Made by a program: the position numbers and the translations under genes
The notes under the pieces: model-generated
Seen by the model: only the letters and a program-made list of their open reading frames with translations
The model's database searches: none
What the model was told of the DNA's origin: nothing
Origin: an uncultured Clostridium sp.
GTDB lineage: Bacteria; Bacillota; Clostridia; TANB77; CAG-508
Length of the DNA: 64,000 nt
Assembly (NCBI GenBank): GCA_902406115.1
Contig: CABPCL010000003.1
Span: forward strand, 48,782 to 112,781
Direction: 5' to 3'
In this document: in pieces, positions 1,770 to 18,079 of the stretch
Numbering within the stretch: the stretch's first letter is position 1
How the letters are laid out: every line of letters begins with the position of its first letter

Positions 1770-1854
1770 TATCATTTTTTTATTATATCTATTTAAGTGA
1801 AGTGTATTGTAGTTAACTGTACTGAAATGTATAACTATGATAGCAAAATCGAAA

Positions 1855-1887
1855 AATCCGATAGTATAAATATTTTACTATCGGATC
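1855..1887. terminator. Bidirectional rho-independent terminator between convergent htpX and the LPQTG gene
   Basis: A perfect inverted repeat (AATCCGATAGTA...TACTATCGGAT) is flanked by T/A-rich tracts on both sides. Confidence 0.5.
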
Positions 1888-1905
1888 TTCTTTATTATTT
1901 AATTT

Positions 1906-2817
1906 TTATATTCCTTTATATTTTTTATGCTTACTGTAAGAGACAATAGCTATAATTATTAAACATGGAATTAAAAACATTATTGTACTATCTACACCTG
2001 TTTGAGGTAACTTTGATTTTGCACTTGAATTATCAGTATTCTTTTTTGTGTTGTTCTTAGTGCTTGAATTATTTGCATTACTTGCATTATTTGCTGTGTT
2101 ATTTGAATTATTTGTATTATTATTTGCTACAGCTTTTACTGTTATAGTTTGTTGAACAGATTTTGTCACTCCGTTTTCTGTATATTTTATCTCAACTACG
2201 CTATCTCCTGCTTTTAGCTCTGTGCTTTCTATAGTAATGTTGCTAGTTATATCTTTTGTTGTACCATTGCTATATTTAGCAGTTATCTGTAATCCTGTGC
2301 TATCAAACTTTTCTCCTGCTTTATATTGAGTTTTGCTTGGTGCTTTAGTAATCTCTATTGAAGTTAATTCTGGCTTTTCTGCTTGTACTTTTATTGTAGC
2401 CACCAAATTATCTAAACTTTCTTCTTGATAATCAGTACCTGCTGTTTGTAATTCAGTAATTGTAATTGTTGCATCTCCTTCTGAAGCACCTGTAGTATAT
2501 TTTATTTCTAATATTGTATCTGTCATTGATCCTTCAGCTTTTAGAATACTAAATGCTTTTGTTTCTTCATTATAAGTTAGTACCCAGTTGTTTTTTGCAG
2601 TTACACTTTCTATTTTTATATTATCACTACATACTATTTTACCACTTACTACACCTATTAATTTTCCAGATGAAATCTGCATTGTTAATGTTTTTGTTTC
2701 ATTTGGCTTTGCAGTTGAATCACCCGTAAGTAAAATTGGTGTACTTGCAGCGAATACAAAGCTACTATATATTGATAAAAGTAAAATCACGAGCATTATT
2801 GTTACTATTTTTTTCAT
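1906..2817 (-). CDS. LPXTG (LPQTG) sortase-anchored cell-wall protein with a putative cohesin-like N-domain, a Big_3-like Ig domain and an N-rich stalk
   Basis: A signal peptide is followed by a ~130-aa beta-sandwich-like domain, then a Big_3-like domain (TKTQYKAGEKFDSTGLQITAKYSNGTTKDIT...) and an Asn-rich low-complexity linker. The C-terminus reads LPQTG + hydrophobic TM + KHKKYKGI. The gene is co-directional with the dockerin-bearing giant gene and lies 70 nt downstream of it. Confidence 0.75.
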   Translation of the reverse strand: MKKIVTIMLVILLLSIYSSFVFAASTPILLTGDSTAKPNETKTLTMQISSGKLIGVVSGKIVCSDNIKIESVTAKNNWVLTYNEETKAFSILKAEGSMTDTILEIKYTTGASEGDATITITELQTAGTDYQEESLDNLVATIKVQAEKPELTSIEITKAPSKTQYKAGEKFDSTGLQITAKYSNGTTKDITSNITIESTELKAGDSVVEIKYTENGVTKSVQQTITVKAVANNNTNNSNNTANNASNANNSSTKNNTKKNTDNSSAKSKLPQTGVDSTIMFLIPCLIIIAIVSYSKHKKYKGI

Positions 2818-2887
2818 TTGTATTCCTCCTTGCTTAGATAAGTATATTTTATATTTTAATTTTCGTCAATATTTTTTATAAATATTT

Positions 2888-5800
2888 TTATATTTTATCT
2901 AACCCTACTAACGCTCTAGCCATTTTTAGTAAGTCAACGCAATTTGGATACTTATTATCTTCAAACACATCAGACGCCATTAGGTAAATTTCATCTAATC
3001 CCTTTTCTTTTCCAGTCATATATCTTGCTAGTCTTAACATATCAGAGTTTGTTACTTTGCCATCACCAGTTAAATCTCCTGTAACAACTATATTTAATAT
3101 TTTTTCTTCTCCATTAAGTGTAAACTTAGCAGTCATTCCTGTACCAATTATATCTGTATCTTTTAACTCTTTATTATCTTTTGTATAAACCTTCATAGAT
3201 GCATTATGCATTATTTTTTCAGCAAATGTTGCAACAGTTGTTTTTTGACGTACTCTGTTAATATATACTTCATCTACTTCATATACATCTGATTTTATCG
3301 ATATATCTGGTGCAGTTCTTATTTTAGTAATGCTAACATTGTAACTTGGTGACATATTTCCTGCTTCGTCTTTTACTTTAATTACAACTTCTTGATTATT
3401 AGCAAATGTTTTCTTGTTGCTTGTTTGCCATGTTTTTCCGTCATCAAAGCTGTATGATATTATACATGAACCACAGTTTCCAGTTATAGTAACTGTTAAT
3501 GTTACAGGCCCGTTTGTCCACTCTGTTGGATTGCCATCAACTTTTATTACAGTTGGAACTGTTTTATCTATTTTAGTTATGTCTATAGTACTATAAGTTG
3601 ATGTATTTCCCAATTTATCTTTAACTTTAATTACTATATTCTTTGTGTTTTCTTTATAAATCTTACTTGCTTCTTTTTGCCATGTCTTTCCGCCATCAAA
3701 GCTATATGGTGTATTATGTAATCCGCACCCTGCATCTGTTGCAGTTATTTTTAATGTTACATCTTTATTTGTCCACGCTGTTGGATTTCCCTCAACCTTG
3801 CTTATGATTGGTGCTGTTTTATCTATATTTGTAATATTAATTGTCTGATATGTTGCAGTATTTCCTAATACATCCCTTACCTTAATTATTATTCCATTTG
3901 TATTATTGGTATAAGTTTTTGTATTAGCTGTTTGCCATGTTGATCCACCGTCAAAGCTGTATGCTGAAGAATGTAATCCGCTTCCTGCATCTGTTGCAGT
4001 TACAGTTAAAGTAACATTTCCTGTTGTCCATGTACCTGGATTTTTTACTACACTGCTAATTGTTGGTGCATTCTTATCAATTCTATTAATAACAATTTTA
4101 TTGTATGTTGTTATATTTCCAGCAACATCTCTTACTTTAATTATTACTTCTTTATTTTCTGTAAATACTTGTTTATTAGAAGATACCCATGTTGTTCCGT
4201 TATCAAAACTATATGGTGTTGAATGTAATCCAGACTCAGCATCTGTTGCTGTTATTGTTAATGTTACATCTCCTTTTGTCCATGCTGTTGGATTTCCTGT
4301 TACACCACTTATTGTAGGTGCAACTTTATCAATTTTTGAAATTGCTACACTAGTTTCATGTGTATTTCCTAGTTTATCTTTTACTTTTATTTTTACCACT
4401 TGATTTGAACTAAATGTTTTTTTATTTGATGTTTGCCATGTTGATCCTCCATCAAAGCTGTATGGTGTAGAATGTAAATCACATCCTGCATCTGTCGCAT
4501 TTATTGTTAATGTAACATCTTTATTTGTCCATGCAGTTGGGTTTCCTGTTATACTACTTACAACTGGTGCATCTTTATCTATTTTCGTAATGCTTTCTAA
4601 TCTAACAGGTGAAATATTTCCTGCTTCATCTTTTACTCTTATTTTTACTTCTTCATTTTTTGTAAAAGTCTTTTGATTTGATAATTGCCATGTCTTTCCA
4701 TCATCAAAACTAAATTGTTCAACAGGTGATCCACTATTTTCATTTGTACTTACTGTTAGAGTTACATTTCCTGTTGTCCAATCATCAACATTTCCTTCAA
4801 CATTTGTTATAGTTGGAACAGTTTTATCTATTCTTAATATATCTATAGTACTATAAGTTGTAGTATTTCCTACTTTATCTCTAACCTTTATTACAATATC
4901 ATATGTAATTCTATCATAAACCTTAGTTGCCTCTTTTTGCCATGTCTTTCCACCATCAAAACTATATGGTGTATCATGTAATCCAGATATTGCATCTGTT
5001 GCTGTTATTTTTAATGTTACATCTTGGTTAGTCCATCTCTTTGGATTTCCTGTTACACTACTTATAACTGGTGGTGTTCTATCTATATTTGTAATATTTA
5101 CTACATCATAAGTTGCTATATTCTCTAATTTGTCTCTTACTTTAATTACTATATTTTTTGTATTTTCTGTATAAACCTTACTTGTTTCTTTTTGCCATGT
5201 CTTTCCACCATCAAAACTATATGGTGTATCATGCAATCCACATCCTGCATCTGTTGCAGTTACTATTAAAGTAACATTTCCTGTTGTCCATGTATCTGGA
5301 TTCTTTACTACACTACTAATTGTTGGTGCGTCCTTATCTATTTTAGTAATATTTAAAGTATTTGTTGTTATATTTCCTGCCACGTCTCTTACTTTAATTA
5401 TTATGCCATTTGTATTTTTTGTATATACTTTACTTGTTGTATTACTCCAAGTTGTTCCACCATCAAATGAATATGCTCCTTGAGCTGTATTTAAACCAGA
5501 TTCTGCATCTGATGCTGTTATTGTTAATGTAACATCATTTTTTGTCCAATCAGCTGGATTTCCTGTTATATCAACTGTTGGTAAAATTTTATCAATTTTA
5601 CTAATTGTTACACTAGTTTCATATATATTACCCACTTTATCTCTTACCTGAATATTTACAACCTGGTTCTTTGTAAATACTTTTGTATCAATATTACTCC
5701 ATGTCTTTCCACCATCAAAGCTATATGGCGTAGAATGTAATCCACTTTCAGCATCTGATGCTGTTATTGTTAATGTAACATCTTTATTGGTCCACGATGT

Positions 5801-8383
5801 TGGATTTCCTGTTATCTTTACAGTTGGCTTAATTTGATCAACATTAATTATTTTTACTGTTTCAGCAAGAGATATATTTCCTGCCTCATCTTTTGCTCTA
5901 ACATATACAGTTTGGTTTGAAGTAAATTCCTTTTGATTTGATGGTTGCCAATCTGTTTTACTTGCATCATTTGTAAAGCTATATCCTATAACTTCAGATC
6001 CACCATTGCTAGTTGCACTAGCTGTTAGTTTTGCTGAGTTTTTAGTCCATTCTGTTGGATTGCCATCAACTTTTAATATACCTGGAACTGTTTTATCTAT
6101 TTTAGTTATGTTTATAGTATTTGTTGTTATATTTCCAGCATTATCTCTTACTTTAATTACTATTCCATTTGTATTGCTAATATATACTTTACTTGTATTA
6201 TTACTCCAAGTTGTTCCACCATCAAATGAATATGCTCCTTGAGCTTTGTTTAGTCTAGCTCCCATATCTGATGCATCTATTTTTAATGTAACATCTTTAT
6301 TTGTCCATGCTGTTGGATTTCCAGTTATTTTCACTGTTGGTGGCGTTTTATCTATCTTAGTAATTGTTTCAGATTTTGCATCACTTATATTTCCTGCTTC
6401 ATCTCTTACTCTGATATATACTATTTGATTTGAACTAAAAGATTTTTTATTTGATGCTTGCCATGTATCCCCATTATTAAAACTATATGCCTTTGCATTT
6501 AGTTTTTTATCATCTGTTGCAGTTATAGCTAGTGTAACGTTTTGATTTGTCCACGAAGTTGGATTTCCTGTTATAGCACTAATTGTTGGTTTTGTAGTAT
6601 CAATATTATCAATTGTTACAGACGTTGCTGCACTTATATTTCCAGCATTATCCTTTACTTTTACTTTTACAGATGTATTTTGTGAATAATGCATTGGATA
6701 AATTGTTGATGTAGTTTCTATCCATGTTGATCCATTATCAAAGCTATATGCTGCGATTCCAGACCCTCCAGTATCTTTTGCATTTGCAATTAGTGATAAA
6801 TCTTTTGTATATTTTTTTGTAGATTTATCAACTCTAATAATTTCTGGTGCTATTTTATCTATTTTTGTAATATTCACATATGAAACAGCGCTCTCATTTC
6901 CAGCAGTATCTCTTACTTTAATATCCACTTCTGTATTGCTAGAGAAAGTCTTTTTATTTGATGTTTGCCAATCTGCACCATCGTTAAAACTATAATCTTT
7001 AATACCACTTGCATCTGATGCATTTACTGTTAAAGTAACACTTCCATTTGTCCATCCATTTGTTGACTTTTCAATACTATTAATTTTAGGTCTAGTTGTA
7101 TCTACTGTTGTAGATCCTCCACTTGAAGATCCTCCACTTGAAGATCCTCCACTTGAAGAACTTTCTTTGCTTACTACAACCTTTACAGTCTTTTGTTGTG
7201 TATTTCCTGCAAAATCTCTAACCTTAACCGTTATAGTTGTATCTTTATTAAATACTTTATAACTTTCCTCTTGCCATGTTTCTCCACCGTCAAATGAATA
7301 AGGCTTCATTATTTTTTCTATTCCCGATCCTGTATCTGATGCTGATATTACATATTTTGCGCCATCATCAGAATAAGAGACAGGTCCACAAGAAATGATC
7401 GTTGGTTTAACTTTATCTATATTATTTACTTTTACTGTTTGCCTTGTCTCATTTCCAACAGCATCTATTACTACTACATCTACGCTTCCATTTTCAGTAA
7501 AAAGAATTTCTCTATTATTATTAATAACTAAATTATCGTAATTACTCTTTAATTTAAATGTTTCATTTATTTTATCTTCAGCACTCAATCCTAAATCCTT
7601 ATTATATAAAAGTTCTGCCTCGTCATCACCTGCATTAATTCTTACAATAACATTACCTGAAGTCCATGCTGTTATATCTTCTTGTGGTGTAATTTCTGGA
7701 CCATTGCTATCTACATGAACATATTGATGTGTATAATCTTTTGCCCACTCAATTACATTAGATCCAGGCTTACAATATATATGAGCCACATTGCTATATC
7801 CAAAAGCCCCACCCCTAATTGTTAAATCACTATTATCTCCTTGTAAATATACAAATAAATAAGGGTCACATGCACTAAAAGCTTCAGATCCTATGCACTG
7901 TACTCCTTCACTGATTACCACATATTTTAATAAAGAGCTTCCAAAAAAGGCCTGATCACTAATCTCATCCATGTATGTTGCACGTATGTATACAGATGTA
8001 AGATAAGGCATTTTCTCAAATGCACTTACCTGTATTGAGTCACATTCTTCTATTACTATATGCCCTATTTTTTCAATATAATCATATGGAACATGTGGTA
8101 ATGCACCAACGCAACTTTCTATAACTAATGTTGCATTTCCTGTTTTGTTTTCATCGCCGGTCACATAATTGTTATATACCAATTTTGCTTTAACTTTGCT
8201 ATTTCCATAATCTATATCAATGCTTTTAACTTCTCCTGCATTTTTCTTACTCTCCGCTATTTGCATTTCGCTTGAGGATTCAGTTACGTTCTTTGAAATA
8301 GCATACCTTCCTATGACAATCGCCATTGATGATACAACTATCAAAATTAAACAAATACAAATTAAAGTTTTAAACCTCTTCAT
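2888..8383 (-). CDS. Giant secreted protein with an N-terminal BspA-type leucine-rich-repeat domain, ~14 tandem Ig-like repeats and a C-terminal dockerin-like module
   Basis: The start is set at MKRF (signal peptide), 9 nt after an AAGGAGAGGG RBS; the track ORF begins 31 codons earlier. An LRR_5-like region is present (IPxxVxxIGxxAF...). A SSSGG linker follows. About 14 ~95-aa repeats share the motif TxxPxIxxxxGNPTxWTNxDVTLTIxAxDxxSGLHxTPYSFDGGKTWQ. The C-terminus carries two Ca-binding dockerin-like segments (GDLTGDGKVTNSDMLRLARYM ... SDVFEDNKYPNCVDLLKMARALVG). Confidence 0.8.
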   Translation of the reverse strand: MKRFKTLICICLILIVVSSMAIVIGRYAISKNVTESSSEMQIAESKKNAGEVKSIDIDYGNSKVKAKLVYNNYVTGDENKTGNATLVIESCVGALPHVPYDYIEKIGHIVIEECDSIQVSAFEKMPYLTSVYIRATYMDEISDQAFFGSSLLKYVVISEGVQCIGSEAFSACDPYLFVYLQGDNSDLTIRGGAFGYSNVAHIYCKPGSNVIEWAKDYTHQYVHVDSNGPEITPQEDITAWTSGNVIVRINAGDDEAELLYNKDLGLSAEDKINETFKLKSNYDNLVINNNREILFTENGSVDVVVIDAVGNETRQTVKVNNIDKVKPTIISCGPVSYSDDGAKYVISASDTGSGIEKIMKPYSFDGGETWQEESYKVFNKDTTITVKVRDFAGNTQQKTVKVVVSKESSSSGGSSSGGSSSGGSTTVDTTRPKINSIEKSTNGWTNGSVTLTVNASDASGIKDYSFNDGADWQTSNKKTFSSNTEVDIKVRDTAGNESAVSYVNITKIDKIAPEIIRVDKSTKKYTKDLSLIANAKDTGGSGIAAYSFDNGSTWIETTSTIYPMHYSQNTSVKVKVKDNAGNISAATSVTIDNIDTTKPTISAITGNPTSWTNQNVTLAITATDDKKLNAKAYSFNNGDTWQASNKKSFSSNQIVYIRVRDEAGNISDAKSETITKIDKTPPTVKITGNPTAWTNKDVTLKIDASDMGARLNKAQGAYSFDGGTTWSNNTSKVYISNTNGIVIKVRDNAGNITTNTINITKIDKTVPGILKVDGNPTEWTKNSAKLTASATSNGGSEVIGYSFTNDASKTDWQPSNQKEFTSNQTVYVRAKDEAGNISLAETVKIINVDQIKPTVKITGNPTSWTNKDVTLTITASDAESGLHSTPYSFDGGKTWSNIDTKVFTKNQVVNIQVRDKVGNIYETSVTISKIDKILPTVDITGNPADWTKNDVTLTITASDAESGLNTAQGAYSFDGGTTWSNTTSKVYTKNTNGIIIKVRDVAGNITTNTLNITKIDKDAPTISSVVKNPDTWTTGNVTLIVTATDAGCGLHDTPYSFDGGKTWQKETSKVYTENTKNIVIKVRDKLENIATYDVVNITNIDRTPPVISSVTGNPKRWTNQDVTLKITATDAISGLHDTPYSFDGGKTWQKEATKVYDRITYDIVIKVRDKVGNTTTYSTIDILRIDKTVPTITNVEGNVDDWTTGNVTLTVSTNENSGSPVEQFSFDDGKTWQLSNQKTFTKNEEVKIRVKDEAGNISPVRLESITKIDKDAPVVSSITGNPTAWTNKDVTLTINATDAGCDLHSTPYSFDGGSTWQTSNKKTFSSNQVVKIKVKDKLGNTHETSVAISKIDKVAPTISGVTGNPTAWTKGDVTLTITATDAESGLHSTPYSFDNGTTWVSSNKQVFTENKEVIIKVRDVAGNITTYNKIVINRIDKNAPTISSVVKNPGTWTTGNVTLTVTATDAGSGLHSSAYSFDGGSTWQTANTKTYTNNTNGIIIKVRDVLGNTATYQTINITNIDKTAPIISKVEGNPTAWTNKDVTLKITATDAGCGLHNTPYSFDGGKTWQKEASKIYKENTKNIVIKVKDKLGNTSTYSTIDITKIDKTVPTVIKVDGNPTEWTNGPVTLTVTITGNCGSCIISYSFDDGKTWQTSNKKTFANNQEVVIKVKDEAGNMSPSYNVSITKIRTAPDISIKSDVYEVDEVYINRVRQKTTVATFAEKIMHNASMKVYTKDNKELKDTDIIGTGMTAKFTLNGEEKILNIVVTGDLTGDGKVTNSDMLRLARYMTGKEKGLDEIYLMASDVFEDNKYPNCVDLLKMARALVGLDKI
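3290..7360. repeat. Tandem ~285-300-bp intragenic repeat array encoding Ig-like domains
   Basis: Near-identical nucleotide blocks recur, and the antisense junk ORFs 3414..3596, 4101..4403, 6006..6242 and 6246..6428 echo each other. The translated protein shows ~14 copies of the same domain. Confidence 0.8.
7113..7160. repeat. Three copies of a 15-nt tandem repeat (GATCCTCCACTTGAA) encoding an (SSSGG)n linker
   Basis: This is a direct perfect triplication in the sequence. It translates to SSSGGSSSGGSSSGG between the LRR head and the Ig-like array. Confidence 0.85.
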
Positions 8384-8480
8384 GTTTTCCCTCTCCTTTT
8401 TTCTTTCCATCATATAATTACACATATTTAAATCAAATGCAATATGCCTTTTCTTACATATATTTTCTCGTGTCATATGC

Positions 8481-12574: not shown

Positions 12575-13816
12575 CTATTTCCCTAGCAATATTATTAAAT
12601 TTATAACCCCTATTATAATTGTAATTACCATAGCAACTACAACTTTTCCATTTTTATCACTAGTTTTTTCAATATTATACTGTTTATATAAAATATCATA
12701 TTTGTTTTTTAATTTTAAGAAAATTTCTTCTACACCTAAGTTCCTACTCCATTTTTTACTTAATATTTTTCCAATTTCATCGTTTGTAGTTTCTTGAATC
12801 CACAATTTCTTTGTAAAATCTAAGAATTCTTTTTCTACCTTCTTAAAACTACTGCTCTTGTTAAAGTTACTACTCATCTTCTGTAACAACATCTTTTTAT
12901 ATAATTCTAAAATATATGTGTATAAAAACTCATTCTCATATTTTTGTGATACTGTTGTATAATTTGATGTATTAACATCAGATGTAAGTAATACAGTTCC
13001 AGTATTTGAAATTCCATAACGAATATACTTATTTTCATATATTTGCATATCATCTCTATTTTGTACTGAATCAGCAAGTTGCTTACTTGCTGGAAAGAAC
13101 ATACGATACTTTTCAAACAAATTATCTATAGATTCGCTATCTGTTTCTTTCTTCCATGCATCTTGATCCAAGCAACAATATGAGTAAGTAATTAATTCTT
13201 CGTCATTAAAATTTAATCTGTTTTTCTCATTATATACACCTGTAATATCTTTAATAAGTGATGATATTTCTCTTACATCTTTAAATATATCTGATTGCAA
13301 TTTTATGTTTTCATATTGTTTTAAATTATATGTTTGAGAATTTACTTCTCTGAACTTATAATTAAAATTCAAAATATCAGAAAATTCCTTACTATCTAAT
13401 AAAGAGGTTTTAAAAATTAGGAAACATACTCCTGTTTTATAACATACAATTTTTATATCATTTATATCAAAAAATATACCGTTTCTCTCTCCTATTTTTC
13501 CTTGTAAATCTTTAGATAGTTCATATTCAAAAATATTGCAATCATGCTCAGCAAGTAAGTTGGACTTCAATGCTATATCTAATTTATCAAAATTTCTAAT
13601 TGCTTCTCTGTCAAGTCCAAATGACCAAAACATATAATCCTTTATATCTGGAGAAAAGTATTGATATAAATTCATATCTCTTGCTCTCTCAAATATTCTT
13701 AGTTTACATTTTTTATCTCTTAATAATTTCTGAATATATTTATTGTATTTACTATTATCAATAACATAAGGATATATAAAATATGTATATTGATATTTTG
13801 TCATTAGTTCCACGTT
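12575..13816 (-). CDS. Hypothetical protein with C-terminal TM anchor
   Basis: The track ORF starts at 13828. A GGAGG RBS suggests a GTG start at 13816 or an ATG at 13804. No recognisable family. The C-terminal hydrophobic segment reads VVAMVITIIIGVINLIILLGK. Confidence 0.55.
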   Translation of the reverse strand, partial: NVELMTKYQYTYFIYPYVIDNSKYNKYIQKLLRDKKCKLRIFERARDMNLYQYFSPDIKDYMFWSFGLDREAIRNFDKLDIALKSNLLAEHDCNIFEYELSKDLQGKIGERNGIFFDINDIKIVCYKTGVCFLIFKTSLLDSKEFSDILNFNYKFREVNSQTYNLKQYENIKLQSDIFKDVREISSLIKDITGVYNEKNRLNFNDEELITYSYCCLDQDAWKKETDSESIDNLFEKYRMFFPASKQLADSVQNRDDMQIYENKYIRYGISNTGTVLLTSDVNTSNYTTVSQKYENEFLYTYILELYKKMLLQKMSSNFNKSSSFKKVEKEFLDFTKKLWIQETTNDEIGKILSKKWSRNLGVEEIFLKLKNKYDILYKQYNIEKTSDKNGKVVVAMVITIIIGVINLIILLGK

Positions 13817-13865
13817 TTTTACCTCCATTACACACTACGTTTATTGCATGGTCGCTGTATTATCA

Positions 13866-15389
13866 TTATTTATCTGTATAATAGTTCAAGTTTAAATCCT
13901 CTCCTATGTGCCATTTACCTATAAATTCTATTAACATATTGTTTTCTAATTTGTATGCAGGTGTAATTTTTAAGTTTCCTTTAGAGTCTACGCAACCCCA
14001 TAATCCATCTTTTTTAACACTTGCATAGCCAAATTCGTTTTGCTCAGTAGCATCATCATAAATATAATCCACAACTACAATTCCATTTTTATCTACAAAA
14101 CCATATTTTCCATCTTTTTTAGATAAGAATATTGTATTGTTTTTTAATGCTTCTTTACTTTGTTTTTGTTCAAATTTAAAATTATAATACTGATATTCTT
14201 CTCCAACTCTAACCTTCATGTATCCACTTTCTAAGTTAAGCTCTGATATTATTCCAGTTAGTTTTACGTTCATGTCACTGTCTATTAAATCTGATGTATA
14301 ATCTGAATTCATTCCTTCATAGAAATTAGCATCTTTTCTATACACTAAGTTTTTATATTTTGGATCAATTAGGTTTGTTCCATCTGAACTAACTATACCA
14401 TATTTATTATTTAATCTAACAATATAGTTTGAGTCTGTTGCATATGTTATATCTTGATATTTTATATCAATAATTTTTTCAGCATCTGTTATTGAGTATA
14501 CTCCATATTTTCCAGATTGTTTTACAACTGCATAATCATTATTGATAGATTTAACATCATCAAACTTACCAGATAAATAATTAGTTCCATCTGTATCTAT
14601 TATTTTCCATTTTCCATTTTCTTTAACTACATAGTATATTCCATTACCATAAATGGCTTTCACATCTTCATATTTTGCAGCCAATGCAACTTTTTTATTA
14701 CAATTAATTACTCCGTATTTTCCGTTTTGTGCTTGTACAATATATCCATTTTCATATTTATCAGAAATTGCTACTATATTTTTATATTCATTGTCTATAA
14801 TAACAGCACCTGTATTATCTATCAAACCTTTCTTTGAGTCTTTAACTGTAATTAAGCTATTGCTTGTTCCTTTAATAGCATCTATTGAATCATATATACA
14901 ATCAGCGACGGTCTTTCCTTTAAAATCTATTACTCCATATTTACCATCTTTTTTAACTTTTAATACATCTTCTTCATACCATAAAGTGTTATCTTTATCA
15001 TAATTTTCAATGGCTTCCACTGTATCATATCCTGTCATTATTTCTTCGCCTTTTTCATTTAACACTTTTGTTTTATATGTATTTTTATTATAATCAACAT
15101 CATATGTACAAATAAACATAGCTTTTGTACTATCTGGTATTATAATTGTTTCATCGTAAGTTGGCTCAATTACTATGTTTCCCTTTGAATCTATTACACC
15201 CCATTTACTGTTTGTATATACAGGAAGATATTTTTGTGCAACTACTTTTTCTTCTCCCTTACTTGTTGGTGTCATTAACTTTTTTATTCCTACTACAAAC
15301 ATAATAATTACTGCAATTGCTATAACAACAGCAAATACTTTCTTCCAATTTAGCTTTTGTTCTCCGTCATATCTCTTACCTCTACTCAT
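13866..15389 (-). CDS. WG-repeat (KWG) containing membrane-anchored protein
   Basis: An N-terminal TM is followed by ~12 repeats of the K(W/Y)G(V/F)IDxxG...P.YD motif. The start is taken at M5 (ATGAGT), 7 nt after GGAGG; the track start at 15401 lies inside the RBS. Confidence 0.75.
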   Translation of the reverse strand: MSRGKRYDGEQKLNWKKVFAVVIAIAVIIMFVVGIKKLMTPTSKGEEKVVAQKYLPVYTNSKWGVIDSKGNIVIEPTYDETIIIPDSTKAMFICTYDVDYNKNTYKTKVLNEKGEEIMTGYDTVEAIENYDKDNTLWYEEDVLKVKKDGKYGVIDFKGKTVADCIYDSIDAIKGTSNSLITVKDSKKGLIDNTGAVIIDNEYKNIVAISDKYENGYIVQAQNGKYGVINCNKKVALAAKYEDVKAIYGNGIYYVVKENGKWKIIDTDGTNYLSGKFDDVKSINNDYAVVKQSGKYGVYSITDAEKIIDIKYQDITYATDSNYIVRLNNKYGIVSSDGTNLIDPKYKNLVYRKDANFYEGMNSDYTSDLIDSDMNVKLTGIISELNLESGYMKVRVGEEYQYYNFKFEQKQSKEALKNNTIFLSKKDGKYGFVDKNGIVVVDYIYDDATEQNEFGYASVKKDGLWGCVDSKGNLKITPAYKLENNMLIEFIGKWHIGEDLNLNYYTDK

Positions 15390-15485
15390 ATTTACCTCCA
15401 TATGTAGTTTACTTATAATTATCCATATATACTATACCATACTTCTATACTAAAATACAACATTTTTATTTATTCATTGACATTT

Positions 15486-15580: not shown

Positions 15581-18079
15581 CTATTTCTTTGTTATTTTTG
15601 CAACGATAACTGTCATATCATCTTTTTGCACTCCAAAATCGTTATCTATTGCTTCTCCTATAATTATATCTGCTATTTTTTGTGCATCATCTATTTGTAT
15701 ATCTTCAAGCAAATATTTTAGCCATACTTGTTTATTTAAATATTCTTTGTTTGAATCTATAATACCATCACTACACATTACTAATATGTCTCCATCTTGT
15801 AAATCGTAGTCATATACCACTAAGTCCACATTAGTTAATATTCCAGTAGGTAGCGATACCGCTTTTAATAATTGTACTTCTCCATTTCTTTTAATGTACG
15901 TAGGACATGCACTATTTTTTATAAATTCCATATTTCCGTTAAACAAGTCTAAAATTTGTATATCTAATGTTGCAAACATGTCTTCACTTGTATTTGCAGA
16001 TAATGTAGAATTAATTAATTTCATAGATACATCTTTTTCAAATCCTGCTGTAAGCAATCTTTCAAGCATCTTAATTGCTATTTTACTGCTTTTCATTGCT
16101 TCAGGTCCTGATCCTTTTCCATCACTAAGTGCTAATAAGTACTTACCATCATTTAATTTGATATGAATACTGCTATCCCCAGAAACAGGAGACCCAGCTT
16201 TTGTTGATTTTGCTATTCCAACTTGTACCTTATATTTATCTTCAGATAAATATGTATATTTACATTCTTTTTTGTTAATCCTTAAGCCACATTCTTGATC
16301 TTGTATTATCATTTTTTCGTTTAATACTTTGCTAACTATTTTTCCTATTTTTTTAATATTACACTGTGTTCCATCTACATTTTCGCAAATATCTGTATAC
16401 ACGCTTACCGTGTATCTACCAGAATTTGCTCTTTTTATATTAATATCTTTTATAAAAATTTCTTTTTGTTCTAACAATTTTATAATTTCTTCTTTTTCAT
16501 CTGCAAAAGAATCCTCTTCTTTTTTATCTATTTCTACTGCCATTTTTGAAATAGCTTCTGATACACCCTTTAGCCCTGCAGAAACATTCTTTTTGCTTTC
16601 ATCCATTTTCTTTTTCCATATAAAACTTAATTTACTAACACGATAAGAATAATTTAAGGCTTTTACAATTTTATAAACATCTTCCTGCGCTTTTTTGCTA
16701 GTATCTTCAAATCCAACAATGTACTGATTATGCTTTGCTAAAACATTTATAAAATCCTTTTCTGTTATTATATCTTTTTCTAAAAGAATTTCAAAAATAT
16801 CCATCATAAATTCTTCTGATATATAACACATAGTATCATATAGCATGTTATCTTCTAATCCATCTAGATTATTTTTAAATTCTTCCATAAATATCTCTAT
16901 ATTAGATCTTTCCTGTTGTTTTAGTTCTTCTTCTGAAAGTATTGTTGCAGCTGCTTCTTGGTAGCTTTCTGCCATATCAAATATTGTTTCCGAAATACTA
17001 TTTAGTTTATATACTGTATCTTTATTTTCTTCCAAACTTCTTCCAGTAGTTTCTGGTAATAGTTTTGTAGTACCAAATAAATCTTCAATATTAATTTGAA
17101 TTCTTTTTGGTATTGCTAAAAGTCCAAGAGAAGCAATTAGTATTTCTTGGAACATAATAAGTGGTACAGAATTTCCATTAGCAGCATATGCAATAACAAC
17201 ATTTCCTAATATAAATCCTACAACAACACCAATCCTGCCAAATCGGTTTAGTAATCCTGCTATCATACCAGATACAGCGTATACAGCTATCATCACAGGT
17301 TCTGATCCGCCAATTATACCAAGAACAACACCTATTGTTATCCCCCCTGTTGCACCAACCAATATTCCGTTTTTCCACCCTAATATTAGCACAATTAAAA
17401 TACTTAGTATATTCTTAATTGAAAAACCAAAAATATTTAGATCACCGAATGCAGATATTGCAATTGCTATTAATAAACTTGTTCCCATTACTTCTTCTAT
17501 TGTAAATGCTTTCTTTGTTTCAAATTCTTTAATAAGTGAAATTGAGCTAACAAATATTTTATAAAAAATGTATGTAGTCATTCCTAACATTATACTTGTT
17601 AATAAATCAAAAACATAAAACGTTCTAAAAAATAATGGTACTACTTGCACAAGAAATACAGCAAAAAATAGATGTACACCTATTTTTCTTTTTTCATTAA
17701 CACCTTCTTGAATTTTTGGTCTAATTAATAATACCAATATAAAAAACGTTAATGATGTTACCACATAAGTTAATAAATTGTTTGTACCGAACCTTATAAA
17801 AGTACCTATCAATGATAAAATATACATTATTCCAATTGCTTGTCCATTACTAAAAGCTGCAGCTAATAAAGCTAGTCCAAAAGGAACAATTGAAAAAATT
17901 AAATTATTTGAACTAAACCCAACCATTGACACCATAAAAGTTAATATATATAGTACTAAATTTTGCTTATCAAATAATCCTTTTGCAATATTTTTAATAT
18001 TATCTTTTTTATTTAATTTAACATCCTCAAACTGATCTTCTGCATAATCCTTTGATATATTTTGAAACATCCTTACCAC
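15581..18079 (-). CDS. spoIIE: Stage II sporulation protein E (PP2C-type serine phosphatase with N-terminal polytopic membrane domain)
   Basis: The protein is ~830 aa with ~10 TM segments at the N-terminus, a central regulatory region and a C-terminal PP2C domain (ALSDGKGSGPEAMKSS...MCSDGIIDS). The start may be M4 at 18070. Confidence 0.9.
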   Translation of the reverse strand: MVRMFQNISKDYAEDQFEDVKLNKKDNIKNIAKGLFDKQNLVLYILTFMVSMVGFSSNNLIFSIVPFGLALLAAAFSNGQAIGIMYILSLIGTFIRFGTNNLLTYVVTSLTFFILVLLIRPKIQEGVNEKRKIGVHLFFAVFLVQVVPLFFRTFYVFDLLTSIMLGMTTYIFYKIFVSSISLIKEFETKKAFTIEEVMGTSLLIAIAISAFGDLNIFGFSIKNILSILIVLILGWKNGILVGATGGITIGVVLGIIGGSEPVMIAVYAVSGMIAGLLNRFGRIGVVVGFILGNVVIAYAANGNSVPLIMFQEILIASLGLLAIPKRIQINIEDLFGTTKLLPETTGRSLEENKDTVYKLNSISETIFDMAESYQEAAATILSEEELKQQERSNIEIFMEEFKNNLDGLEDNMLYDTMCYISEEFMMDIFEILLEKDIITEKDFINVLAKHNQYIVGFEDTSKKAQEDVYKIVKALNYSYRVSKLSFIWKKKMDESKKNVSAGLKGVSEAISKMAVEIDKKEEDSFADEKEEIIKLLEQKEIFIKDINIKRANSGRYTVSVYTDICENVDGTQCNIKKIGKIVSKVLNEKMIIQDQECGLRINKKECKYTYLSEDKYKVQVGIAKSTKAGSPVSGDSSIHIKLNDGKYLLALSDGKGSGPEAMKSSKIAIKMLERLLTAGFEKDVSMKLINSTLSANTSEDMFATLDIQILDLFNGNMEFIKNSACPTYIKRNGEVQLLKAVSLPTGILTNVDLVVYDYDLQDGDILVMCSDGIIDSNKEYLNKQVWLKYLLEDIQIDDAQKIADIIIGEAIDNDFGVQKDDMTVIVAKITKK

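Follow-up and report, generated by a model that had tools for sequence, protein, structure and literature searches.

A predicted cohesin fold in a sortase-anchored protein encoded beside an X-dockerin-tailed giant: a probable surface-display unit of an uncultured gut Clostridium

Introduction

Assembly by cohesin and dockerin is known mainly from the organisation of polysaccharide-degrading enzymes. A 64,000-nucleotide stretch of contig CABPCL010000003.1 (positions 48,782 to 112,781 of the forward strand) from an uncultured Clostridium sp., here called the window, encodes on its minus strand a giant surface protein with a dockerin at its C terminus and, directly behind it, a small protein with an LPQTG sorting signal. 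The locus raises the question whether the giant is held on the cell wall by its small neighbour. An initial annotation, made from the letters of the DNA, had read the two proteins as a cohesin-dockerin pair, and the analysis described here supports that reading through the domain and fold evidence, a gene order that recurs in relatives down to 27% cohesin identity, and a fusion of X module, dockerin, cohesin-like domain and LPATG motif in one polypeptide. It is likely that the two genes form a surface-display unit in which the giant is hung by its X module and dockerin (X-dockerin) on a sortase-anchored cohesin.

Fold of the wall-anchored protein

The gene placed 70 nucleotides (nt) downstream of the giant by the initial annotation, co-directional and encoding an LPQTG protein with a Big_3 domain, was found as described (Table 1). 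Its 303-residue product consists, in order, of a signal peptide with predicted cleavage between SFVFA and AST, a 127-residue domain, Big_3, an Asn/Ser/Thr-rich stalk and the sorting signal. The Big_3 region matches the N-terminal domain of 4fdw/4fd0 in the Protein Data Bank (PDB) with an E-value of 0.0018. The tripartite sortase signal is explicit; the protein scores under the cutoffs of Pfam PF00746 Gram_pos_anchor (14.6 versus 20 bits) and NCBIfam EF0750_LPXTG (24.6 versus 47), the short Pfam model being weak on Asn-rich linkers.

Word-indexed searches recovered almost no homologues, and a contig search with the whole small protein returned only Big_3 matches (L001-L003, of which L003 was inspected). 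An exhaustive HMMER search revealed a family of about 130 cluster representatives for the 127-residue domain. Most members are 200-340 residues long and carry the domain straight after the signal peptide; an LPxTG motif closes the family consensus.

An AlphaFold (AF2) model of residues 24-150, built with the family alignment, reached a predicted local distance difference test score (pLDDT) of 96.3 and a predicted template modelling score (pTM) of 0.88. When this model was compared with the PDB by Foldseek, the top matches were cohesins, ahead of other beta-sandwiches. The best was the cohesin of the Clostridium perfringens glycoside hydrolase family 33 (GH33) enzyme, 2vo8, with template modelling (TM) scores of 0.84 for the query (TMq) and 0.79 for the target (TMt), a root-mean-square deviation of 2.3 Å and an E-value of 6e-7. 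It was accompanied by the Archaeoglobus cohesin 2xdh (TM 0.78/0.73), the C. perfringens cohesins 2jh2 and 2w1n (TMq 0.73-0.78), about 20 chains of type II cohesins (1qzn, 3f2l, 5k39, 5m0y, 4fl4 and others; TMq 0.58-0.74) and the Ruminococcus bromii Sca5 cohesin 7urp (TM 0.56/0.46). Identical top matches were obtained with an independent single-sequence model of the small protein. Judged by these models, the domain is a cohesin by fold, not by sequence, and the fold on which the initial annotation had made its reading depend is predicted.

Other cohesin-like beta-sandwiches were considered for the same domain, namely a YcnI/DUF1775 copper-binding domain, a CLIPPER/DUF11 isopeptide stalk or a reeler-like domain. 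Foldseek also lists 9ifr CLIPPER (20% identity), YcnI (7me6/8um6) and F-spondin reeler domains, and weak DUF1775 matches occur in four of 100 relatives. Yet these folds match clearly less well (TM 0.54-0.61, none above 0.61, versus 0.73-0.84 for the cohesins), and neither YcnI nor CLIPPER accounts for the obligate dockerin-tailed neighbour, so that an assignment of this kind is very improbable. YcnI binds copper via histidines; residues 24-150 contain no histidine and the TM score is only about 0.6, and the copper reading was rejected. The CLIPPER reading, based on PF01345 (formerly DUF11) as defined in PMC12617251, was rejected with no PF01345 match and a TM score of 0.58-0.60 to 9ifr. A conserved Lys/Asn/Glu triad was not found in the family alignment, in which K70 and E72 both vary.

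X-dockerin tail of the giant

A C-terminal dockerin had been proposed for the giant, and both Pfam and profile comparisons bear this out. The last 142 residues form an X-like module followed by the dockerin, and the protein ends in ...VVTGDLTGDGKVTNSDMLRLARYM...ASDVFEDNKYPNCVDLLKMARALVGLDKI before the stop codon. Pfam PF00404 (Dockerin_1) scores 26.6 bits in the full giant (cutoff 22.9, E 6.8e-6) and 29.3 bits on the isolated tail, and also matches five of eight related tails at E<=0.1. A profile of the eight tails, searched against the PDB, matched solved dockerins over both segments (among them 2ccl_B with E 6e-4, 1ohz_B, 6kg9 and 4fl4_A), with the second segment aligned to the second segment of the solved dockerins; every match below E 0.05 was a dockerin-bearing chain. 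The X-like module, for which the Pfam search gave no family, travels with the dockerin in all relatives, and its residues T59 and M61 are invariant within a conserved I(G/A)TGM-type motif.

Conserved pairing in relatives

The gene context was examined for eight diverse members of the cohesin-like family (P0080, P0006, P0008, P0012, P0029, P0058, P0116 and P0096), whose domains are 27-75% identical to that of the window. At all eight loci the directly upstream gene lies on the same strand, is separated by about 50-120 nt and ends in an X module plus the variant dockerin. In the reciprocal test, metagenome contigs were searched with a hand-built degenerate DNA pattern of the tail, which gave 20 loci, and their open reading frames (ORFs) were scored by hidden Markov models of the cohesin-like domain and of the tail. 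A cohesin-like ORF was found directly downstream in the window-type loci and also in L026/L039, L029/L037, L033 and L038, whose downstream products end in LPYAG, LPYTG, LPHTG or YPKTG; LPATG is a further sorting motif among relatives. With the window and the fusion P0127 counted, the X-dockerin tail is directly upstream of, or fused to, 14 of 14 sequence-distinct cohesin-like genes.

The fusion P0127 unites cargo, X-dockerin, cohesin-like domain and LPATG in one polypeptide, which could self-associate or polymerise. Its gene (L021, 3548-6511; L022, 1564-4527) sits right behind a Peptidase_C1 gene. L038 (reverse strand, oriented coordinates 1-2367) holds a chain of three genes: an X-dockerin-tailed gene, an adaptor with the order cohesin, Big_3, X-dockerin, and a cohesin anchor with a PGNNA-repeat stalk and YPKTG. 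The signal peptide and first cohesin strand of the adaptor are in another frame, an apparent frameshift in the assembly.

The cargos are adhesin-like and comprise LRR_5 (leucine-rich repeat, LRR), Big_2/invasin, M60 peptidase and DUF285 proteins. Examples are a Peptidase_M60 protein with LRR_5 and Big_3 (L004), two consecutive LRR_5 proteins (L018) and a DUF285 protein of 1702 residues (L019); the cargos examined included no glycoside hydrolase. In one lineage, several LRR_5 proteins (L023, L028, L032, L041) have dockerins that are almost the same, and only L026/L039 has a cohesin gene behind it there. L023 and L026 share contig OIDP01000042.1, and about 270 nt of X-dockerin tail are nearly identical between these LRR_5 genes, which suggests a recent duplication or gene conversion keeping the dockerins alike.

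One relative, P0007 (865 residues), carries two tandem cohesin-like copies and an N-terminal membrane segment, gave no Pfam matches and does not have the layout of the small anchors. Three candidates for multi-copy scaffoldins were rejected, P0067 and P0123 as generic immunoglobulin (Ig) or cadherin repeat proteins and P0038 as mapping to a 159-Mb contig, taken as eukaryotic.

Evidence for and against direct docking

A number of observations count against docking of the giant in its neighbour. One is the sequence of the small protein. Pfam gave no cohesin (PF00963) match to it at E<=1, so that the proposal that its first 130 or so residues are cohesin-like stands by fold (the pLDDT-96 model and the 0.84/0.79 match to 2vo8) and not by Pfam. 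Alignment of the domain with the CipA cohesin (verified as 1aoh_A) by hhalign returned a probability of 1.2%, and PF00963 matches within the family were weak and confined to four of 100 members (best 5.9e-4). Likewise, nothing in NCBIfam called the domain a cohesin, phmmer of the small protein against the PDB gave no significant cohesin match, and the family profile found nothing significant there, the cohesin 2xdh reaching only E 0.91. Furthermore, adjacency of the genes is a functional link, not necessarily direct binding.

The missing sequence-level signal would suit an arrangement in which the proteins cooperate without cohesin-dockerin binding. The small protein would then be a sortase-anchored accessory or Ig-like adhesin in its own right, and the dockerin would bind something else, such as a wall polymer, a second dockerin or a cohesin encoded at another place in the genome. 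Many dockerin-like modules of non-cellulolytic organisms lack a known partner, and the LRR_5 lineage described above has dockerin-tailed genes also away from any cohesin gene. These orphan dockerins are, however, near-identical to the cohesin-adjacent one, as expected of clients with a common receptor. The arrangement is also at odds with the tail found at every one of the 14 cohesin-like genes, with the existence of a direct fusion and an adaptor, and with a fold nearest to bona fide dockerin-binding cohesins, and it is considered unlikely.

On the dockerin side, the proposal of a two-segment calcium-binding module fared differently in its two halves. Loop 1 is canonical, with 12 residues (DLTGDGKVTNSD) followed by the helix MLRLARYM. 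Loop 2 (DVFEDNKYPNCVD) is non-canonical, having 13 residues, one extra, and Phe at position 3, and tells against the proposed docking. All relatives share this variant, position 3 being occupied by Phe, Asn, Ile, His or Val, and from its sequence a calcium site in the second loop is doubtful. The asymmetry of the loops and the constant presence of the X module suggest one mode of binding, as in type II and III pairs; a dual mode may also be available, since both helices bear a similar D-L-L-x-x-A-R motif.

The N terminus of the giant has a hydrophobic segment of about 20 residues without a clear AxA cleavage site and might stay as a membrane anchor, a further point against the display unit. 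Binding could then be real and the topology different, with the giant membrane-anchored at its N terminus and either tethered at both ends as a loop or engaging, by its dockerin, cohesins of neighbouring cells, which would cause aggregation in place of a distal tip. The fused and adaptor forms show that cohesins and dockerins are able to build chains. Gram-positive signal peptides are, on the other hand, often long, AIS followed by K is an acceptable signal-peptidase site, and an LRR head right behind the signal would, given cleavage, suit a distal tip. A different topology is improbable, slightly more so than cooperation without docking. Finally, no sortase gene was found in the 64-kb window by the Pfam scans. 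A TLxTC motif was rejected as a sign of a window sortase, as it occurs only in spurious antisense ORFs.

Gene layout and the displayed protein

Starting from its first ATG, the ORF of the giant covers 2888-8476. A strong ribosome-binding site (RBS), AAAGGAGAGGG, lies before the start at 8383 (MKRFKTL...), which matches exactly the public gene call of 1831 residues. A sigma-70-like site (TTGACG-17-TATACT, 2841-2869) lies in the spacer between the genes, and an internal promoter there is only a possibility, because promoter-like sites across the region are no commoner than in shuffled sequences. No terminator was found between the two genes. The terminator behind the small gene has a folding energy of -17.8 kcal/mol (z = -4.4), and none of 200 shuffled sequences folds equally well. 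With an RBS at both genes, no terminator between them and a strong one behind, the pair looks like a single transcription unit.

The LRR/Ig-repeat giant of about 1830 residues was confirmed. Its LRR_5 match corresponds to residues 145-235 in a 1862-residue numbering of the protein. The Asp-box SFDGGxTW was found 15 times by regular expression at a spacing of about 84 residues, and a degenerate 16th copy, SFTNDASKTDWQ, was read by eye in the sole double-length gap; one more repeat possibly lies upstream of these 16. NCBIfam NF047446 (OmpL47-type beta-barrel) covers 13 stretches of the repeats with E 2e-60, and Pfam gives many CHB_HEX_C and BNR matches to them.

At least 24 metagenome contigs carry the same gene pair, with a gut-metagenome label on at least one, and the exact 303-residue protein is likewise encoded on at least 24. 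The giant differs in length between samples (1826-1918 residues, L012-L017) while the small protein stays identical, which points to variation in repeat number or sequence restricted to the stalk.

Table 1. Features of the two-gene locus (window coordinates)
Feature	Position	Strand	Basis or remark
Giant surface-protein gene, dockerin-tailed	2888..8383	-	1831 residues; stop codon included
N-terminal secretion signal or signal-anchor (MKRFKTLICICLILIVVSSMAIVIGRYAIS)	8294..8383	-	read from sequence
BspA-type leucine-rich repeat head, Pfam LRR_5	7772..8044	-	36.7 bits, cutoff 27.7
Stalk: 16-17 tandem Ig-like repeats of ~84 residues, Asp-box SFDGGxTW each	3317..7441	-	regular expression, NCBIfam, Pfam
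X-like module, ~75-79 residues, directly before dockerin	3080..3316	-	tail alignment
C-terminal dockerin, two loop-helix segments	2891..3079	-	Pfam; profile matches to solved dockerins
Intergenic spacer of the minus-strand unit, 70 nt	2818..2887		contains RBS AAGGAGG of small gene
Gene of wall-anchored protein with predicted cohesin fold	1906..2817	-	303 residues; stop codon included
Signal peptide (MKKIVTIMLVILLLSIYSSFVFA)	2749..2817	-	read from sequence; position conserved in family consensus
Predicted cohesin-fold domain, residues 24-150	2368..2748	-	AF2 model and Foldseek
Big_3 Ig-like spacer domain	2137..2340	-	Pfam 23.5 bits, cutoff 21.2
Asn/Ser/Thr-rich low-complexity stalk, presumed wall-spanning	2011..2136	-	read from sequence; pLDDT <50
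Sortase sorting signal	1909..2010	-	LPQTG (1996-2010), hydrophobic segment, basic tail SKHKKYKGI
Intrinsic terminator, 15-bp stem then U-run	1845..1890	-	18 nt past stop codon of small gene

Discussion

In the proposed display unit, the small protein would be exported and then covalently joined to peptidoglycan by sortase via LPQTG, so that Big_3 and the Asn/Ser/Thr-rich stalk would hold its single cohesin-fold domain off the wall. The giant would be exported with cleavage of its signal peptide, and its C-terminal X module and dockerin would plug non-covalently into this cohesin; the first dockerin loop probably requires Ca2+. For wall attachment the giant would accordingly use its X-dockerin and not an LPXTG motif of its own. 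In the displayed fibre, about 17 Ig-like repeats would make up the stalk, and the BspA-type LRR domain at the tip would be the binding head, which may adhere to a host or dietary ligand. The cohesin would be held at its C terminus and the X-dockerin pulled from its N terminus, as in the ScaE-CttA pair of Ruminococcus flavefaciens, and because this pulling geometry is that of the ScaE-CttA anchor, a mechanically strong single-mode interaction is expected by analogy.

The closest functional analogue would be the type III anchoring pair formed in R. flavefaciens by ScaE with the X-dockerins of CttA and ScaB. ScaE has one cohesin and an LPXTG motif, and its partners are the X-dockerins of ScaB and of the adhesion protein CttA (PMC2930009, PMC4266597). 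Like ScaE, the small protein has a single cohesin-type domain and is a wall anchor with a C-terminal LPXTG sortase signal; this layout of signal peptide, one cohesin and LPXTG with hydrophobic segment and basic tail is repeated in the family consensus and in L026, L029, L033 and L038. As with CttA, which is a non-enzymatic adhesion protein (PMC2930009, PMC4266597), the partner ends in an X module and a dockerin, and several clients per anchor would be served in both systems with the same pulling geometry. Unlike ScaE, the present cohesin is small (about 127 residues) and seems unrelated in sequence, and R. flavefaciens entries are absent from the 50 best Foldseek matches of its model. The X module also seems to differ from those of CttA and ScaB, being a unit of about 75-79 residues without a Pfam family. 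Moreover, the cargo consists of adhesin-like LRR, Ig-repeat or peptidase proteins and not of cellulosome parts, and the partner genes are strictly adjacent here.

Structurally, the models place the non-cellulosomal cohesins of C. perfringens closest. The cohesins of NanJ (GH33) and NagJ (GH84C), represented by 2vo8, 2jh2, 2w1n and 2o4e, are the best matches, with TM scores up to 0.84/0.79. They are of similar size (about 130-135 residues) and likewise belong to a non-cellulosomal cohesin-dockerin system in a low-GC (guanine plus cytosine) gut clostridium, whereas sequence identity to them is only 5-9%. As Adams et al. are said to have described in 2008, the C. perfringens modules lie within large secreted enzymes and join these enzymes into complexes. 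In the present locus, by contrast, a dedicated sortase-anchored cohesin protein would display a non-enzymatic fibre.

The amylosome scaffoldins of R. bromii and the divergent cohesin families of human ruminococci are further cohesin-dockerin systems of human gut Firmicutes with sortase-linked scaffoldins, and they resemble the present one in that sequence models are blind to the cohesins, which are detectable by fold only (PMC4611034, PMC13463774). Unlike these systems, which organise amylases and carbohydrate-active enzymes (CAZymes), the present one showed adhesin-type cargo. Dockerin-tailed LRR proteins with the architecture SIGN-LRR-Doc have already been catalogued in R. flavefaciens FD-1 (PMC2930009, Tables 1-2). 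In contrast to the giant, these proteins have no long Asp-box repeat stalk, and they belong to a cellulosome with many scaffoldins in which the cohesin partners are non-adjacent and largely unknown. A search of an incomplete literature library gave no paper describing the present cohesin/X-dockerin system, and a cohesin family with its own X-dockerin variant, strict adjacency of partner genes and adhesin-type cargo appears undescribed.

More tentatively, and with somewhat less than even confidence, the domain may found an unannotated cohesin family, with about 130 clusters at 50% identity mostly from uncultured gut Clostridia, which together with the X-dockerin variant peculiar to it would make up a modular network for the display of adhesins. 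The parts of such a network would be wall anchors, adaptors of cohesin, X module and dockerin, fused forms and, for each anchor, several exchangeable heads with dockerin tails, namely BspA-type LRR, invasin-like Big_2, M60 peptidase and DUF285 proteins. If this holds, cells could swap or shed host- or particle-binding heads with the covalent anchor unchanged, and the human gut would harbour a cellulosome counterpart that is non-catalytic and devoted to adhesion.

With the two-gene unit itself, uncultured Clostridia of the human gut appear to use the plug-and-socket logic for fixing adhesin-type proteins to their wall. A cohesin family that escapes Pfam strengthens the recent case that too few cohesins are counted by sequence searches (PMC13463774) and offers a route to annotate hundreds of "hypothetical" LPXTG proteins. 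The conserved X-dockerin tail helps to locate surface adhesins of gut commensals, and the co-encoded pairs lend themselves to binding tests, to studies of mechanostability and to toolkits for orthogonal protein display.

Other features of the window

The window has a GC content of about 29%, and its housekeeping genes include spoIIE, mreBCD and minC. Four tandem giant surface proteins of 1684, 1680, 1966 and 1258 residues with SdrD_B, SpaA and DUF11 domains are encoded at 18357-38638 (minus strand); DUF11, an isopeptide-type domain, has since been renamed CLIPPER. Each protein closes with a hydrophobic segment plus basic tail and has neither LPXTG nor dockerin. Their C termini sort them into two pairs of paralogues, 18357/28951 and 23428/34862.

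A PcrA/UvrD helicase at 49008-51387 (minus strand) is split into two overlapping ORFs, one (50539-51387) for the N-terminal domain and one (49008-50588) for the C-terminal domains. A pseudogene, a frameshift or an error of the assembly could account for the split. Directly beside it, a large serine recombinase (Resolvase, Recombinase and Zn_ribbon_recom) lies in the region 51756-54643, with an Amidoligase_2 gene on the opposite strand; this region may be a remnant or the edge of a mobile element. Two ORFs on the minus strand, 12575-13828 (417 residues) and 61322-63916 (864 residues), have no Pfam match at E<=1e-5. The gene at 13866-15401 (minus strand), beside spoIIE (15581-18079), encodes a WG_beta_rep repeat protein of 511 residues with an N-terminal membrane anchor.

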